From a virus (Duplodnaviria > Heunggongvirae > Uroviricota > Caudoviricetes): DNA of 40,694 nt. The stretch is from IMG/VR virus record IMGVR_UViG_2541047798_000002, one strand, 5' to 3'. Below the pieces are notes generated by a model. The model made no database searches. It worked only from the letters and a program-made list of their open reading frames with translations, and was not told the DNA's origin. Shown here piece by piece: positions 30,737-37,648 of this stretch (positions within the stretch are counted from its first letter, which is position 1; each line of letters begins with the position of its first letter). The position numbers and the translations under genes were made by a program.

Positions 30737-32152
30737 ATGGCTGCTTGGCAACAGGGTATTAATTCTGGTGGTTTTCTGGCTGGCATCGGTACGCAAAATG
30801 AGAATGCGCCAAAGGCAAGCGACATTAACGCAACGCTTGGTCTGATCCGCGAAAACAATGAACTGGCTCGCTCAGGTACAAATAACGTTGGTCTGACCGC
30901 GTTACGTGGTCTGGCTGGAGTTGCTGATATTTACAATCAGGAACAGCAACAGAAAGCGATTAGTGCGTTCAATAAGGTTCATGCTGATGCATGGGCTTCT
31001 GGTGATCCATCGGGACTATTTAAGTTTGCCCAGGAAAATCCAGCGTTTGTTGCACAGGCACAACAGGCGTTTTCAGGTCTTAATGATCAGCAACGCAACG
31101 ATATGGGCGATTTAGCCATGAGAGCTAACGTCGCTCTTTCTCAGGGACCGGAAGCCTACAGTAAATTCATTACTGACAACAAGGACAGGTTAAATCGCGT
31201 GGGGGCGAATGCTGACTGGATGATTCAGACAGGTATCCAGAATCCAGAGCAGCTATCACACATGCTGACTACTATGTCTCTCGGTGCGCTTGGACCAGAA
31301 AAGGCGTTTGCTGTTCAGGACAAGATGGCTGGTCGTGAAATTGACCGAGGCAGACTGGCAGAGACAATCCGCAGCAATCAGGCTGGAGAAGCACTTCAGG
31401 CGAGAGGGCAAAACCTTTCCTATCAGTCAGCAATGACTGGGCACAATATCGCAGCACAACGCTTGGCTCTGGATCAGCAAGAGTTTGGGTTTAAGATGCA
31501 GCAAGCGCAGGAAAAGGCTCAGCAGTTGATTAGCGAAGCACCTAAGCTGTCAGTAAACATGGAAAAAGGCATCGAGACGGCTGTAAACAATGCCACAGCA
31601 TCATCAAACTCAGCCAATTCCATGAGTGCGCTTGCTCAACAGTTCAGAGCAGAAAAACCAACGACAGGTTTGTTCGGTAACGCACAGAACATGTTCGCAA
31701 AACTTACCGGAAGCGATACGACATTGCGTGATTTGCGCATTCGCCAAAATGCCCTTGTTAACAGTCAGGTTCTTAAATTCCTACCTCCCGGCCCAGCAAC
31801 GGATAAAGACGTTGAGATCGTTCGACAGGGTGCGCCAACTGACATGGATAACCCTGAGACGGTCGCAAGATGGCTTGATGCAATGGCAAACCTTGAGCGA
31901 CGAAACGCGCAGTTTAATGAGTTTAAAGCCGAGTGGATGAGCGCGAATGGCAACCCTGGACAATCGCGTAATGGCGGTCAGATATTGGGGTTGGATGTTA
32001 AAAAAGGTGAATCATTGGGGAGTGCCGTTAAGCGGTATATGTCATTGAATACTGACGCAGCGCCAGCACAAGATTCGACACCTTCAGGAGAACCACGGAA
32101 TCAGGTTGGATCATATACCTCAAAATCAGGCATTCAATTTACGGTGGAATGA
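30737..32152 (+). CDS. Ejection protein, P22 gp20-like
   Basis: 471-aa ORF, same length and position as P22 gp20. Confidence 0.75.
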
Positions 32153-33990
32153 TGAAAGTTACTGCAAACGGTAAGACATTTACCTTTCCTGATGGTACGA
32201 GCACGGAAGATATTGGCACCGCCATTGATGAGTATTTTGCTGGTCAGGCTGTTCAGCAACAAACAGTTAATCAGGCCAATAATGCACCAACACGGGAAGA
32301 ACCATCATTGATGCAACAAGCTGGCGATTGGCTCACTGGTGGTCAAAGTGCAGGGCAAATTGCGGAACAGGCTGGTCGTGGTCTGGTAAACATACCATTT
32401 GACGTATTGCAGGGCGGCGCAAGTCTGATTAATGCAATCAGCCAGGGGCTTGGTGGCCCCAAGGTTTTGGACGATGTCTATCGTCCAGTCGATCGACCAA
32501 CAGACCCTTATGCGCAAGCTGGAGAAACAATTGGCGGGTATTTAGTTCCAGGAGTTGGAACGGCAGGAAGCATGGCTATTGGATCACTGGCAGAGGCCGC
32601 AAATCAGAAAGGCGATTTCGCACAAAATGCAGCTAAAAATGCCGGAGTTAACCTTGCCGCTCAGGGGGTTCTTTCCGCAGCAGCAAAGGGAATAGGGCGT
32701 GGAATAACGGCTATAAAAGGTGATATTGCGCCAGAAGTGGCGAAGAAAATTGCCACATCAGAATCGATGGGCGTGACACCAATGACATCTGATGTTATCC
32801 CGCCGAAAAATGCTTTCACTCGCGGCCTAACTCAGGATGCCGAGGGGGCTTTGCTCGGGACAGGCTCAAAGCGAGCGGAGCAATATGCAACGCGTAGTAA
32901 GCTGGTAAGTAATTATTTTGACCGTTTTGGTGAGTACAACCCTGATGATGTGGTGAAATCTCTTACCACCACGTTAAGGGGGCGGAAGGATGCCGCTGGC
33001 GCTGTTATCAATGACGTCACCAATAAAATGGGTAATGCCGCAGTTGATACCACAAATACCATGAATGCTCTGAATACAGCGATCGCAAGACAGGAACGAC
33101 TTGGGACGTCTGCCAATCAAAGCCTGCTTACATCCTTGCGTAACCTACGTGAAGAATTAGCAAACCCTGCAACTGATTTGGATGTTACGTTTGATCTCTT
33201 GCGTCAGCACAGAACAGCATTTAGATCTAATGTTCAGGGAGATGCTATGGTCTTCCCCAACCAGGCAAAAGCAGCTACCAATATGGTAGAGAATGCAATG
33301 TCAAAAGACCTTCGTAACGCAGTTGCTAAAAACCTCGGTGCATCAGACGCAGCAAAATACCTTAAAGCAAATTCCGATTATGCAAACGTTTATAATAAGG
33401 TGCTTAATAAAAACATTGCTAACAAACTCAACAAGGCAAGCAGTGAAGCCAGTCCTGAACTTATAAATACCGTTGTATTAAGCAGAAAACCATCTGACGT
33501 GAAACGAATCTGGAGCGCATTGGATAATAAAGGGAAAGATGCTATGCGTGCAGCTTATGTCAGCAAAATAGCGGAAAAGGCCGGTGACTCTCCAGCCAAG
33601 TTCATCACTGAAGTTAATAAGCTGAAATCTCAGTCAGGCGGTGAAATTTACAACACTATTTTTTCTGGAAAGCACATGAAAGAGCTTGATTCTCTTCATG
33701 AAGTTCTACAGCAAACAGCAAGGTCAGACACCGCAAATGTAGTAACTCAGACGGGGCAATCGCAAGCCAACAGGATAAGGACGATTGGCGCAACTGCGAC
33801 TCTTGGCGTATCAATGGGGCTTGAGGCTGGTTTCGGTGCAATGATGCGCTTGTATGAGTCCAAAGCAGCAAGGAATGCTCTCTTACGTTTGGCAAACACC
33901 AAAGCAGGAACACCAGCCTATGAAAGAGCGTTGAGTAACGCTGCAAATGCCATCAGACCGCTGCTTGCCACTGAGGCAACACAGCAGTAA
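32149..33990 (+). CDS. Ejection protein, P22 gp16-like
   Basis: 613-aa ORF in gp16 position (P22 gp16 ~609 aa). Confidence 0.75.
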
Positions 33991-34014
33991 CGTATGGGGA
34001 ATTGGATTCAATCG

Positions 34015-34404
34015 TTAACATTTTCTTTTTACTTTTCCAACAAAAGCTTTGGTTGAATCCATATTCCCATAACCAGAAATGGTTTTCGACATTAAAACTG
34101 TTCCATTAGGATGTATTACCCATGAGTCGATAACTCGTTGAGTTTCGCCATTCGCGCCGATTCCAATGATGGAGTTTTTAGACAATGCTTTGTAAGCCAT
34201 GCCGCCCGCATCTGTCCCAGAATATGTGATGCTGGCATCTTCACTGCTTGTCTTAATGATGAATGTTCCACTAAAACCATCTTCTTCCGGATGGAAATTA
34301 TTTCGTTCTGAATAGCTTATTCCGCGCATATCTCCAACGACCCAGCACTCTGCTGTAGCCCCAAAAGATATGAATAAGAACATAGCAGCAAGAAATTGCT
34401 TCAC
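34015..34404 (-). CDS. Hypothetical secreted/periplasmic protein (129 aa, predicted signal peptide)
   Basis: GTG start with AAGGAG SD inside ORF-track ORF 34015..34620; N-terminus VKQFLAAMFLFISFGATA-ECW has a signal-peptide profile with A-x-A cleavage site; opposite strand to structural genes. Confidence 0.5.
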   Translation of the reverse strand: MKQFLAAMFLFISFGATAECWVVGDMRGISYSERNNFHPEEDGFSGTFIIKTSSEDASITYSGTDAGGMAYKALSKNSIIGIGANGETQRVIDSWVIHPNGTVLMSKTISGYGNMDSTKAFVGKVKRKC

Positions 34405-34434
34405 ACCAACCTCCTTAGTTTTGAGCAGGATACC

Positions 34435-34800
34435 ATGAAAAAAGTTAACATTGGAAACGTACCAAAGATGCTCGTTCCGCTCTTTGAGAGCGGTACAATT
34501 GTGTTTTGTAGAGACTTTCCAGAATGGCAACGCCTGCATCAAAAACTTGGCGTTGACGTGCATGACTCGGACGCCAACGGAGCGTCTCATACAATGAGCA
34601 GCGAGAATGGTGTTTTGCATGTGATAGGCGTGTTCAATGGCAAACTATCTACTATTGCCCATGAGTGCGCTCACATGGCATTCGATATCTGCTCAAGGGT
34701 CGGTGTTGATGTTGAACCAGGAAGAGCCAATGAGACTTACTGCTACTTAATGAGCAGGCTTGTTGAGTTCTGCGAGCGACATATCAAAAAGCCGGAGTGA
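34435..34800 (+). CDS. Hypothetical protein with HExxH zinc-metallopeptidase-like motif
   Basis: ATG with AGGA SD inside ORF 34396..34800; motif STIAHECAHMAFD (H-E-x-x-H); ~121 aa. Confidence 0.5.
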   Translation: MKKVNIGNVPKMLVPLFESGTIVFCRDFPEWQRLHQKLGVDVHDSDANGASHTMSSENGVLHVIGVFNGKLSTIAHECAHMAFDICSRVGVDVEPGRANETYCYLMSRLVEFCERHIKKPE

Positions 34801-34813
34801 CCCGGCTTGAGTA

Positions 34814-34993
34814 TTACTTTTTGCTGTCTGGAGTTCGCTTATCCAATACCCAGCCATGACCTGGCTTTGTTGTTGGTGGAAGCCTTTCGTTGTCCTTGAC
34901 GGTTGCAAAATTGTCTTTCTTACCGCCGCGTGGGCCAACTTCTTGGTATATTCCGCCGTTTTTTCCTGTGTTTTCACCTGGTTTTTTCGCCAT
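34814..34993 (-). CDS. Small hypothetical protein (59 aa), YjzC-like pattern
   Basis: ATG with GAGG SD; MAKKPGENTGKNGGIYQEVGPRGGKKDNFATVKDNERLPPTTKPGHGWVL; upstream TTGACT promoter-like hexamer; terminator-like hairpin (aagccgg-agtgac-ccggctt) downstream. Confidence 0.45.
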   Translation of the reverse strand: MAKKPGENTGKNGGIYQEVGPRGGKKDNFATVKDNERLPPTTKPGHGWVLDKRTPDSKK

Positions 34994-35075
34994 GATATAC
35001 CTCAACATATACCCGTTATTGGGCGATTAAATATTGATCTCATTTTATAAGTAGTCAATATGGCCCAGGTAAATG

Positions 35076-35108
35076 CAAAAATTAACCCACCGTCAGGTGG
35101 GTTTTTTT
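35076..35108. terminator. Bidirectional intrinsic terminator
   Basis: cccacc-gtca-ggtggg hairpin flanked by AAAAA and TTTTTTT. Confidence 0.6.
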
Positions 35109-35140
35109 ATCTTCTCTACTTTAAAGATTAAGGAAATACC

Positions 35141-35326
35141 ATGACCATAGAAGAACGTCTGAACAACATTGAGTTGAATCAAACCCTGCTTGACCAGCGA
35201 CTTTCAGATCTTGAGCTTAAAGATCTAGATGTGCAAATATCAGAAGCAGAAGCCAAGCTCTCCAGCTTAAACCACCGCAGGAAGCAAATCCGCGACAGAA
35301 TTACTCGTGGACGCGGAGGCTGTTAA
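35141..35326 (+). CDS. Hypothetical coiled-coil protein (61 aa)
   Basis: ATG with AAGGA SD; convergent with the ClpP-like gene; support is SD only. Confidence 0.3.
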   Translation: MTIEERLNNIELNQTLLDQRLSDLELKDLDVQISEAEAKLSSLNHRRKQIRDRITRGRGGC

Positions 35327-35403
35327 GGTGTGATGGTAATCCTTGCTCACTAAATTTAAGGATGCGAATCTTTCCGGCCATAGGAGTAATCATGATTTAC
35401 CCA

Positions 35404-35940
35404 TCAAACAACCCACCAGTTTGCCTGATTGGATACCAGCCTTGCAGTTTTTATGGAATTAATTATGCCATGCTCAAGAGCCTTGTTAGCATCCAAAATG
35501 GTCGAGTCTGCTATCAGGGATGCCCACCTAATATGGGTTCCGATGTCGATATTGAACGTCTCAACGAAGCGATCAAGATCGTTATCGAGGCATTTCCCGT
35601 ACTCTCTCAATCTGGCATGGTCGGCGGCTGGGGAGGCAAAGCACCATAATAGAGGATGTAACAGGAATCTTGATAATGGGTTTGCGAAACGTTCTGAGCC
35701 AGCCAGGAAAACGATATTAGCTATGGATTCAACATTGCTTATGTTGTGAGTTCTAACGGTAACAGGGAGTGACTTAAGAAAGTTATACGCAGTAAAGCCA
35801 GCGGCAGTTTCCCCTCCCTGACTTGATATATGGATATTTAATTCAGTTGCGCCTTGAGATAATGCGGTGAGACAGTGGTTCTGAAGTTGCCCAACAGTGG
35901 CAGTGTTAACGGGGCATAAGAAATGAATTGTGTGCAGCAT
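35404..35940 (-). CDS. ClpP-fold (S14-like) serine protease, stand-alone
   Basis: 178-aa ORF; collinear with E. coli ClpP as recalled: IHISSQGGETAAG (cf. YINSPGGVITAG), NVESIANIVFLAGSERFANPLSRFLLHP (cf. GQAASMGAFLLTAG..RF.LPNSRVMIHQP: Ser and His of the triad), KALEHGIINSI (cf. EAVEYGLVDSI). Start ATG overlaps mnt stop (TAATG). Confidence 0.65.
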   Translation of the reverse strand: MLHTIHFLCPVNTATVGQLQNHCLTALSQGATELNIHISSQGGETAAGFTAYNFLKSLPVTVRTHNISNVESIANIVFLAGSERFANPLSRFLLHPLLWCFASPAADHARLREYGKCLDNDLDRFVETFNIDIGTHIRWASLIADSTILDANKALEHGIINSIKTARLVSNQANWWVV

Positions 35941-36194
35941 TATTTATCATCCTTGCCATAAATCTTTTTAAGTGTCTCAAACACAACGGCCTTGAACTGC
36001 TCTGCTTGCTGATCAGCCAAGCGTTCAGCTTCGTCTCGATAGCCTGCAATCGGTGATGGCTTTGAGAGAGCATCCTGAACGATTTGTAATAACTCAGAGT
36101 TCATTGACCTTCCGTTAGCCTCTGCTCTTAATTTCAATTTTTCTCTTACTTCCAAAGGCATACGGAAGTTAAAGTGCGGATCGTTTCTAGCCAT
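35940..36194 (-). CDS. mnt: Mnt repressor (ribbon-helix-helix), immI
   Basis: 84-aa ORF MARNDPHFNFRMPLEVREKLKLRAEANGRSMNSELLQIVQDALSKPSP... near-identical to P22 Mnt as recalled. Confidence 0.85.
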   Translation of the reverse strand: MARNDPHFNFRMPLEVREKLKLRAEANGRSMNSELLQIVQDALSKPSPIAGYRDEAERLADQQAEQFKAVVFETLKKIYGKDDK

Positions 36195-36284
36195 GCCATC
36201 ACCCCAAGTTAGTGTATTGACATGATAGAAGCACTCTACTATATTCTCAATAGGTCCACAGTGGACCTATATTGTGAGGTAAAT
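36195..36284. promoter_or_regulatory. immI control region: Pant/Pmnt with Arc operator (ATGATAGAAGCACTCTACTAT) and Mnt operator (AGGTCCACAGTGGACCT)
   Basis: Both operator sequences match the P22 O-arc and O-mnt sequences as recalled; TTGACA-17-TATATT rightward promoter overlaps the arc operator. Confidence 0.8.
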
Positions 36285-36443
36285 ATGAAAGGAATGAGCA
36301 AAATGCCGCAGTTCAATTTGCGGTGGCCTAAAGAAGTATTGGATTTGGTGCGTAAGGTGGCGGAAGAGAACGGGCGATCTGTTAACTCTGAGATTTACAA
36401 GCGAGTGTTGGACAGCCTGAAGAGAGAGGGGATAACGGTATGA
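36285..36443 (+). CDS. arc: Arc repressor (ribbon-helix-helix)
   Basis: Internal Met of ORF 36222..36443: MKGMSKMPQFNLRWPKEVLDLVRKVAEENGRSVNSEIYKRV... matches P22 Arc. Confidence 0.85.
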   Translation: MKGMSKMPQFNLRWPKEVLDLVRKVAEENGRSVNSEIYKRVLDSLKREGITV

Positions 36444-36661
36444 GGTTTATTGAGGTTGATGAGATTGGCTATGAGAATGCACTTGGTAGAGGTAAATCTT
36501 TAGTTAACATTGATGGCATTGAATCGATAAGGAGTGGTGAATTTACGGAGATCAGAATGATGTCAGGCGGAATCATTCCTTGCCGTGATTCAGTAGAGTC
36601 AATCAAATCAAAAATGAGTGGTCAGTGGCTTTATAGCTACAGTGACTTACAAAAACAGTGA
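36440..36661 (+). CDS. Hypothetical protein (73 aa) between arc and ant
   Basis: ORF overlapping arc stop (ATGA); no motif recognised. Confidence 0.4.
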   Translation: MRFIEVDEIGYENALGRGKSLVNIDGIESIRSGEFTEIRMMSGGIIPCRDSVESIKSKMSGQWLYSYSDLQKQ

Positions 36662-36724
36662 AGCCCCAACTGCGGGAACAGTCAGGGCTTCGGTATCGTA
36701 AAACCACGCATAGGAATTAACGAC

Positions 36725-37648
36725 ATGACGAGTGTAGCAATTGCAGAACATACAATCAACGTTCCATTCCACGGAACAAATCTCTTTTTGGTCAGCATTA
36801 ACAATGAACCTTACGTTCCTATGAAACCCGTTGTAGAAGGCATGGGTATGGTTTGGGCTGCTCAATTTGTTAAATTAAAACAGAGATTTGTCAAAGGTAT
36901 TTCGGAAATCGAAATACCTTCTGCTGGCGGTAAACAGTTAATGATATGCCTTGCCTTTCGTAAGTTTGCGGCTTGGCTTTCAAGCATTCAGCCAAACAAA
37001 GTCCGCCCTGAAATCCGCGACAAGGTAATCCAGTATCAGGAAGAGTGTGACGATGTGCTCTACGAGTACTGGACTAAAGGTCATGTAGTTAACCCACGCA
37101 AAGCTAAAAAGGCGTTGCCGAGTAAAATTACCACTGAACAGCAGGAAGCCATTAAACAACTCGTCATGAGTCGCGGTCAGTCTCTGCCAAAAGAAAAACA
37201 GGCGAAGGCAATGATTACCATGTGGTCGTCACTGAAATCTCATTTTGGGTGTTCATACAAAGAAATCAGCGAGGAGCAGTTTACCGAAGCTCTGTCACTT
37301 GCAGCTCGCGTTCCGCTTGAAGGTGAGTTTATCGGCAAACAAGAGAAGAAAACCAACGAGCTTTCTGCAAAAGAAGCAAACAGCCTTGTATGGTTATGGG
37401 ATTATGCCAACCGTTCACAGGCATTATTCCGCGAACTGTATCCGGCGCTAAAACAAATTCAATCGAACTATTCCGGCAGATGCTACGACTACGGTCATGA
37501 GTTCTCGTATGTTATCGGAATGGCGAGAGACGTTTTAATCAATCACACACGAGATGTTGATATTAATGAGCCAGACGGACCAACGAATCTTTCCGCATGG
37601 ATGAGACTTAAGAATAAAGAATTACCTCCTTCAGTACATAACTACTGA
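36725..37648 (+). CDS. ant: Antirepressor Ant (P22_AR N-terminal domain type)
   Basis: 307-aa ORF downstream of arc in immI; N-terminal region [39 protein letters not shown] typical of P22-type antirepressor N-domain. Confidence 0.7.

Follow-up and report, generated by a model that had tools for sequence, protein, structure and literature searches.

The accessory DNA that separates genes 16 and 9 of P22-like phages has been named the 'ant moron' and shows a high turnover of gene cassettes (Villafane et al. 2008, PMC2629481). One of the P22 proteins relevant here is SieA, a multi-pass inner-membrane superinfection exclusion protein with the motif FxRYPxEAxxFNK (Leavitt et al. 2024, PMC10883804). 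The name of the gene hex of phage 434 stands for 'heterologous exclusion': according to the part of PMC3564112 that cites Susskind & Botstein 1980, Salmonella lambda imm434 lysogens exclude P22 and hex mutants do not. A further gene, hkcC, is named in PMC4837284 and PMC2629481; our literature search did not find a functional study of hkcC, orf59a or orf61. Here, we analyze an interval of this kind in a viral DNA of 40,694 nucleotides (nt) (IMG/VR record IMGVR_UViG_2541047798_000002; this whole stretch is referred to as the window). The window is a P22-like temperate phage genome and the interval studied extends from the end of its gene 16 homolog to its ClpP-like and mnt genes. Lying between homologs of ejection gene 16 and tailspike gene 9, the interval occupies the position of the ant moron. 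It is followed on the right by the ClpP-like gene, mnt, arc, an open reading frame (ORF) of 73 amino acids (aa), ant and then the tailspike gene, which starts at 37749 and encodes a P22-type head-binding N-terminus. Pfam matches to Arc and Repressor_Mnt confirm that the immI genes lie beside the interval, the product of the ant homolog shares 56% identity with P22 Ant, and the sar antisense RNA was located at 36657-36723 on the minus strand by an Rfam match of 76.6 bits.

Regions of this kind have been described before; what is new in the interval is the mosaic combination. We consider it likely to be the variable, gene-16-proximal part of an ant moron, holding four independent single-gene cassettes with the expression and functions proposed below; what enters into this reading as established are the identities and homologies of the genes, their conservation, the junctions of the mosaic, the hairpins and the conserved promoter. 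An earlier note on this DNA, made from the sequence, had described four short ORFs that alternate in strand, together with two hairpins, in the space from gene 16 to the ClpP-like and mnt genes. All of them are present, with small corrections of coordinates, and the interpretation as a mosaic accessory island was borne out, the ant moron being its name in the literature (PMC2629481). The same note had seen candidates for undescribed small systems, an expectation that has to be dropped as the genes already carry names (hkcC, orf59a/hkcD, Sf6 gene 38/Hex and Emek orf61) and do not move together as a unit. The features of the interval are as follows.

34015-34404, minus strand: gene of a 129-aa Hex-family protein, a homolog of Sf6 gene 38 and Emek orf129, with a predicted signal peptide and small beta-barrel
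34435-34800, plus strand: hkcC, the ORF with the HExxH motif (here HECAH), 121 aa, PHROG 1365, stand-alone and zincin-like
34435-34465, minus strand: putative promoter stretch, counterpart of the sieA promoter annotated in P22, inside the 5' end of hkcC, transferred from the P22-pbi annotation 'P sieA' (13861-13891) via a 98% alignment
34789-34808: intrinsic-terminator hairpin corresponding to P22 't mnt', with a U-run on the minus strand only (z -3.2 minus, -2.8 plus)
34814-34993, minus strand: orf59a (hkcD of HK620), 59 aa, with the pattern PPTTKPGHGW, remotely YjzC-like
35030-35058, minus strand: promoter-like element TTGACT-17-AATATT for orf59a, from a consensus scan
35084-35103: hairpin with a perfect 8-bp stem and a T/U run on each strand (z -5.2 and -4.1)
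35141-35326, plus strand: orf61 (Emek orf61, phrog_7586), 61 aa, helical and coiled-coil-like

Comparison with P22 places the mosaic junctions precisely. Positions 34402-35108 of the window are about 98% identical to P22 13828-14533; the left end of this shared block is the sieA start codon, and on the right the block stops within the final codons of P22 mnt. The hairpin at 35084-35103, the right arm of which corresponds to the last mnt codons in P22, marks the right junction. The exact arrangement is carried by one IMG/VR contig (L032), which matches window 33001-37000 contiguously at 99.6%. A survey of 5426 complete E. coli genomes identified some part of the island in 420 genomes and at least 80% of it in 21, which argues against the idea, raised earlier as a question for comparative genomics, that it travels as a unit. 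The Hex-like gene was found in 147 of the surveyed genomes, hkcC and orf59a in 132 (genomes holding any of the pair) and orf61 in 129. A scan of viral contigs with the hkcC alignment A2 returned close relatives only (at least 98%) and not distant contexts. The 80 close IMG/VR loci with hkcC displayed 32 architectures, with orf59a present in 69, orf61 in 19, P22-type sieA in 13, the Hex-like gene in 11 and the ClpP-like gene in 5 of them. Because its modules assort independently, the island is not one system. An interpretation as a single defence or toxin-antitoxin system was rejected on the same ground and for want of PADLOC matches: the PADLOC defence-protein models did not match the 129-aa protein, hkcC, orf59a or the ClpP-like protein, and orf61 gave a lone coiled-coil-type match to PbeC (E 0.001).

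The coding status of the ORFs was assessed by comparing the window ORFs with alleles in related loci (ratio of nonsynonymous to synonymous substitution rates, dN/dS, by the Nei-Gojobori method, NG86). The ratio lay at 0.03-0.09 (hkcC), 0-0.28 (orf59a), 0.09-0.30 (129-aa ORF) and, in most comparisons, 0.14-0.4 (orf61). Full-length homologs reach down to 43% identity for hkcC, 45% for the 129-aa ORF, 64% for orf59a (Pasteurellaceae) and 69% for orf61 (Serratia), and homologs at 43-80% identity occur in other genera and unrelated contexts. Because of the low dN/dS and the homologs in other genera, all four ORFs are judged to be real genes. None of the four proteins matched a Pfam, NCBIfam or PADLOC model at threshold.

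The 129-aa ORF has a GTG start preceded, 5 nt upstream, by AAGGAGG. Its product begins with a signal-like segment, MKQFLAAMFLFISFGATA|ECW, with a Kyte-Doolittle maximum of 2.55 (11-residue window). The mature part is hydrophilic, lacks a transmembrane window (maximum Kyte-Doolittle 0.62 over 19 residues) and is predicted to be all-beta, with the conserved Cys20 and Cys129 forming the ends of the first and last strands. The protein thus looks exported, in line with the secreted protein proposed earlier. Full-length matches at 27% identity were obtained by tblastn against phage genomes in 434, Sf6 gene 38, HK446, HK633 and Sf101; the match to 434 Hex, annotated as 'repressor protection protein', has an E value of 3e-5 at database level. 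Pairwise BLASTP between the 129-aa protein and 434 Hex gave an E value of 1e-12, profile-profile alignment with hhalign a probability of 98% (E 1.5e-13), and both proteins match phrog_2651. By these comparisons, the 129-aa protein is a member of the phage 434 Hex family. Across this family, the N-terminal signal-like part varies in sequence while the mature part is conserved, starting with (A/S)-E-C-W-(V/I)-V and retaining the C-terminal Cys. It should be noted that mechanical ORF calling yields a longer version at 34015-34620 (minus strand; 201 aa), 72 codons longer and with an ATG inside hkcC. Over-long start calls of the same type are found for P22 sieA (236 versus 164 aa) and 434 hex (158 versus 134 aa); these long starts have no ribosome-binding site and would bury the signal peptide.

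In the window, the Hex-like gene replaces sieA exactly, and the P22 sieA ribosome-binding site and promoter region are kept. Membership in the SieA family was rejected since the 129-aa protein is all-beta, has no hydrophobic mature window and lacks FxRYPxEAxxFNK. Family members are found at various positions: 434 hex (L097 1429-1905) lies directly downstream of cI, the Hex-like matches in HK446 and Sf101 overlap or adjoin the repressor gene, and in E. coli ETEC1747 a Hex-like gene occupies the mnt-operon slot downstream of mnt. The stable 'sHex' fragment of 434 Hex starts at Glu43 of the 158-aa ORF (PMC3564112, 2013). Upon translation of the 434 locus, Glu43 was found to follow directly after A-N-S, a predicted signal-peptidase site homologous to ATA|ECW in the window. 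Because the N-terminus of sHex coincides with this predicted site, Hex is probably exported, and the 129-aa protein apparently is as well. We hypothesize that the Hex-like product resides in the periplasm as a small, disulfide-closed beta-barrel. It would most likely interfere at the envelope with superinfecting P22-like phages; interference with P22 has been demonstrated by genetics for 434 hex, and the link to Hex strengthens an earlier guess that the secreted protein serves exclusion. The sieA slot of P22-like prophages can hold a homolog of 434 Hex, which besides sieA is the only gene known to be linked by genetics to P22 exclusion. This suggests that the slot is given over to exclusion and that its effectors can be exchanged.

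The product of hkcC is 99% identical to the P22 copy and belongs to a large family. A profile search of 1.84 billion representatives returned 546 hkcC clusters at E <= 0.001, nearly all of them stand-alone proteins of 110-140 aa, and all 72 sampled relatives match phrog_1365. The HExxH motif is present in 141 of the 145 top representatives, the 4 exceptions looking truncated or frameshifted, and is invariant in two family alignments (A2, A6). An alignment of 128 sequences, with relatives about 22-44% identical to the query, showed conservation of G49, of E100 (127/128), Y104 (124/128) and N99 (96/128). The residues H76-E77-x-x-H80, E100 and Y104 thus form a set that is invariant or nearly so among some 130 diverged relatives. 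E100 is located 20 residues after H80, usually within an N-E motif, the same spacing as in thermolysin, and would be the third zinc ligand. In the AlphaFold2 (AF2) model of hkcC (mean predicted local distance difference test score, pLDDT, 89.1), a sheet is followed by helix 71-88, containing HExxH, and then by helix 100-116, containing the Glu. The recurring weak sequence and fold matches are all metallopeptidases (thermolysin, myroilysin, BMP-1, the 3e11 zincin-like protein, CapP, IrrE, M3 and M9). Searches of PDB sequences with hkcC alone and with two profiles returned marginal metallopeptidase matches (E 0.05-1.4) or none, and Foldseek found no match for the model in the PDB.

Based on motif and topology, a minimal zincin is the most likely fold of hkcC. 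It would bind zinc via H76, H80 and E100, use E77 as its catalytic base and cleave some target during lytic growth. A HExxH protein that could be a minimal metallopeptidase had been noted before; the motif proved to be family-defining and to be followed by the invariant Glu, whereas the M78/ImmA, SprT and WLM folds suggested for it gave no match at threshold. No Pfam or NCBIfam model matched hkcC at threshold, M78, SprT-like and WLM included. Among the 72 relatives, sub-threshold SprT-like Pfam matches were seen in 9 (best E 1e-4) and M78 or WLM matches in none. hkcC fits no curated peptidase family, and PHROG 1365 has no Pfam or NCBIfam model. Longer relatives (154-283 aa) were examined for fusion domains and carry low-complexity tails only.

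The orf59a product is 98% identical to that of P22 orf59a and matches phrog_3202 (7e-31). Among the four genes, only orf59a has, by its sequence, the make-up of a classical moron: its promoter-like element is conserved, and a hairpin lies to either side. Between the P22, Xenorhabdus and Proteus loci, the spacer of this element diverges in sequence, but the two hexamers and the 17-nt distance between them persist. The hairpin at 34789-34808, the loop of which holds the hkcC stop codon, is predicted to end the leftward orf59a transcript. Promoter, gene and terminator would thus make up a self-contained cassette. Downstream of the right hairpin, orf61 has a Shine-Dalgarno sequence (AAGGA) before its ATG and lies antisense to the 3' end of the mnt operon. 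We identified 41 homologs with 69-95% identity in Escherichia, Salmonella and Serratia; they are mostly 61 aa long, and longer entries reflect alternative upstream start calls. XhlA (PF10779) was rejected as an identity for orf61, scoring 15.5 bits against a cut-off of 34.7; orf61 has a basic RGRGGC tail and no hydrophobic stretch.

Between 33700 and 36500, terminator-like sites number 7 against 2.6 +/- 1.8 expected, while promoter-like sites are not enriched (5 against 4.9 expected). The bidirectional terminators and private promoters attributed to the island in the earlier note are found in part. The hairpin at 35084-35103 has the features of a terminator in both directions, whereas that at 34789-34808 carries its U-run on the minus strand only; orf59a has a promoter-like element of its own, whereas no sigma-70-like site was found for the plus-strand ORFs in a consensus scan of the plus strand from 33700 to Pant (36217). 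The attribution of an own promoter to the Hex-like gene comes only from homology to the annotated P22 sieA promoter, and this stretch would drive the gene leftward. The Hex-like gene and orf59a point leftward, against the late operon, and prophage expression is expected for both. The rightward genes, hkcC and orf61, share the orientation of the late operon. The DNA upstream of hkcC is swapped between phages and may contain sieA, the Hex-like gene or others. Only a few bases separate hkcC relatives from the late gene ahead of them in prophages that include those of Xenorhabdus, Proteus, Kluyvera and Citrobacter; the relatives are often found directly in front of the small terminase gene or behind tail genes. 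Late read-through toward gene 9 in P22 was, in part, reportedly described by Berget, Poteete and Sauer in 1983. The gp23-modified late transcripts of P22 read through the region to gene 9 (summarised in PMC2629481). Thus, hkcC and orf61 are most likely transcribed by antiterminated late transcripts that would run from gene 16 through to the tailspike gene.

Several points weigh against the reading of the interval as four independent cassettes with these functions. The timing of expression is deduced from orientation and P22 annotation, the sieA promoter stretch fails to score in a simple consensus promoter scan, and the strong plus-strand terminator at 35084-35103 could silence orf61 unless antitermination is efficient. 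For the 129-aa protein, identity to Hex is just 27%, and the sole biochemical study of Hex assigns it a cytoplasmic role, the inhibition of RecA-stimulated repressor autocleavage (PMC3564112). Such a role is at odds with export, yet it may prove to be the actual function, in which case the 129-aa protein, as a member of the same family, would stabilize lysogeny by protecting the prophage repressor and would not act in envelope exclusion. Deletion of hex causes a recA-dependent rise in spontaneous induction, and a Hex fragment inhibits cleavage of the 434 and P22 repressors in vitro (Shkilnyj et al., PMC3564112). The active fragment of that study was, however, a refolded partial barrel with its N-terminus at the predicted signal-peptidase site. 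A signal-like N-terminus that varies in sequence ahead of a conserved mature part, conserved Cys residues at the end of the first and of the last strand and a location in the sieA slot, far from the repressor gene, likewise argue against the cytoplasmic role, and we regard repressor protection as an unlikely function of the 129-aa protein. Greater weight has to be given to the possibility, though we still doubt it, that hkcC is not a peptidase and that its HExxH...E...Y site has another zinc-dependent or structural role, for example in binding or inhibiting a host protein or in another type of hydrolysis. The peptidase assignment is supported by motif and topology only; hkcC is very small, neither a peptidase family nor a solved structure gave a significant match, and C25, C78, C86 and C103, which the P22-like subgroup conserves, could make up another metal site. 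These cysteines are not conserved across the whole family, whereas the residues that are invariant family-wide constitute the gluzincin set (H, E, H and the Glu 20 residues on in N-E, as in thermolysin), and the order of secondary structure elements is that of zincins. A minimal zincin remains our preferred assignment for hkcC.

A different view of the island would treat hkcC and orf59a as a two-gene functional module, for instance a protease with its inhibitor, substrate or regulator, that forms the conserved core of the ant moron, with the remaining genes as cargo. P22, HK620, Xenorhabdus, Proteus and a Pasteurellaceae prophage all retain the two genes converging on a common terminator; there, hkcC is 46-63% and orf59a 64-80% identical to the window's copies and the genomic contexts differ. 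An antirepressor-like gene is nearby in two of these loci, with an Arc/Mnt-like gene in addition in Proteus, and both genes occur together in 113 of the 132 E. coli genomes with any of the pair and in 69 of the 80 IMG/VR loci. Against a module, hkcC stands without orf59a in 11 of the 80 close loci and in 8 of 11 more distant genomic relatives, the YjzC-family gene of Clostridium phage phiCT9441A stands alone among head genes, and the two genes lie on opposite strands with expression predicted at different times. A dedicated module is in our judgement improbable, and independent cassettes are preferred. Far less probable still is that some of the ORFs are spurious and that the DNA is conserved for regulation through promoters, terminators and antisense RNA in immI. 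The region is indeed dense in signals, with the sieA promoter stretch overlapping hkcC and orf61 antisense to the mnt operon, and hkcC is unannotated in P22-pbi. Against this stand dN/dS values well below 1 for all four ORFs, the occurrence in other genera and unrelated surroundings of full-length homologs that are 43-80% identical, and an Rfam scan in which sar, outside the interval, was the only RNA matched.

The genes flanking the interval are listed below.

30737-32152: gene 20 homolog
32149-33990: gene 16 homolog, 75% identical to P22 gp16
35404-35940, minus strand: ClpP-like serine protease, 178 aa (Pfam CLP_protease, 2.2e-11)
35940-36194, minus strand: mnt
36440-36661, plus strand: 73-aa ORF (phrog_11805, the same as Emek orf73), between arc and ant

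The ATG of the ClpP-like gene overlaps the mnt stop codon at 35940, and candidate Ser, His and Asp residues of its product align by eye with the ClpP catalytic triad; the protein is expected to be expressed from the prophage together with Mnt. The position of the 73-aa ORF is empty in P22, and the sar match starts at the last codons of this ORF. Related prophages show how variable the slots of the interval are. A Panacea/DUF4065 gene pair replaces hkcC and orf59a in Emek (L002 3373-4246), a Rap1a/Tai-family immunity protein is encoded in the same slots in E. coli ETEC1747 (L005 2926-3666), and further small genes fill them in other prophages. Xenorhabdus (L006 4001-5594) and Proteus (L007 3947-6837) carry hkcC, orf59a and an antirepressor-like KilA-N/Bro-N gene in the tail region of prophages that are not P22-like, and an ant-moron-like block may move between phage types. 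Distant hkcC relatives (L010 3291-3692, L009 4376-5014) are located between lysis and terminase genes, next to a Tad2-like (anti-Thoeris) gene in Citrobacter and a PF18894 gene in Kluyvera. The PF18894 'PhageMetallopep' protein was considered as a relative of its hkcC-type neighbor and rejected (hhalign probability 1.9%); HExxH is all they have in common.

In P22 itself, hkcC has been present for decades as 'unknown', and it turns out to represent a large phage family with a fully conserved metalloprotease-type site. This makes it a cheap and well-defined target for genetics in the best-studied Salmonella phage. As a broader and tentative proposal, on whose correctness we would not count, hkcC and PHROG 1365 may constitute minimal (about 120 aa) gluzincin-type peptidases in the late operons of many temperate phages that cleave a specific host or prophage protein in the lytic cycle, for instance a defence or immunity component (relatives are neighbors of Tad2-like and antirepressor genes), while Hex proteins may be exported periplasmic barrels that block P22-like phages and are interchangeable with SieA. 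If an exported Hex does block at the envelope, the published cytoplasmic RecA/repressor mechanism would need revisiting. Export, exclusion and peptidase activity, like the timing of expression, are what we infer for these proteins.

Compared with known systems, the proteins of the interval show different degrees of kinship. The YjzC-like character of the 59-aa peptide, pointed out in the earlier note, can be upheld as a remote relationship, not as certified family membership. The alignments of orf59a and three homologs to the YjzC model (PF14168) span its 55 positions from one end to the other, and a Clostridium phage relative of orf59a is annotated as YjzC family, but the scores of 19.4 bits for orf59a and 16.5-19.8 for the homologs fall below the gathering cut-off of 25. 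hkcC shares with gluzincins of the thermolysin type the HExxH motif, the spacing to N-E and the zincin order of elements (sheet, active-site helix, Glu helix), and its weak matches are to zincins only. It differs from these and from minimal zincins such as 3e11 and SprT-like proteins in that no match reaches a curated threshold and in being a 121-aa stand-alone domain with putative activity.

The 129-aa protein has in common with Hex of 434 and Sf6 gene 38 (phrog_2651) the signal-like N-terminus, the (A/S)ECW(V/I)V start and the STK(A/S)FVG..C end. The window gene and 434 hex would both belong to units transcribed from the prophage. They differ in location, downstream of cI in 434 and in the sieA slot here, and the cytoplasmic mechanism published for Hex contrasts with sequence features that indicate export. 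With P22 SieA, the 129-aa protein shares the slot, the upstream ribosome-binding site and promoter region and the expected role of excluding P22-like phages, yet the sequences are unrelated and a multi-pass membrane protein is exchanged for a soluble beta-barrel predicted to be exported. At the level of the whole region, the window and P22 have the same slot between genes 16 and 9, the hkcC-orf59a block at 98% nucleotide identity and mnt, arc, sar and ant next to it. Unlike P22, the window has a Hex-family gene in the sieA slot and, between orf59a and mnt, a bidirectional terminator, orf61 and the ClpP-like gene.

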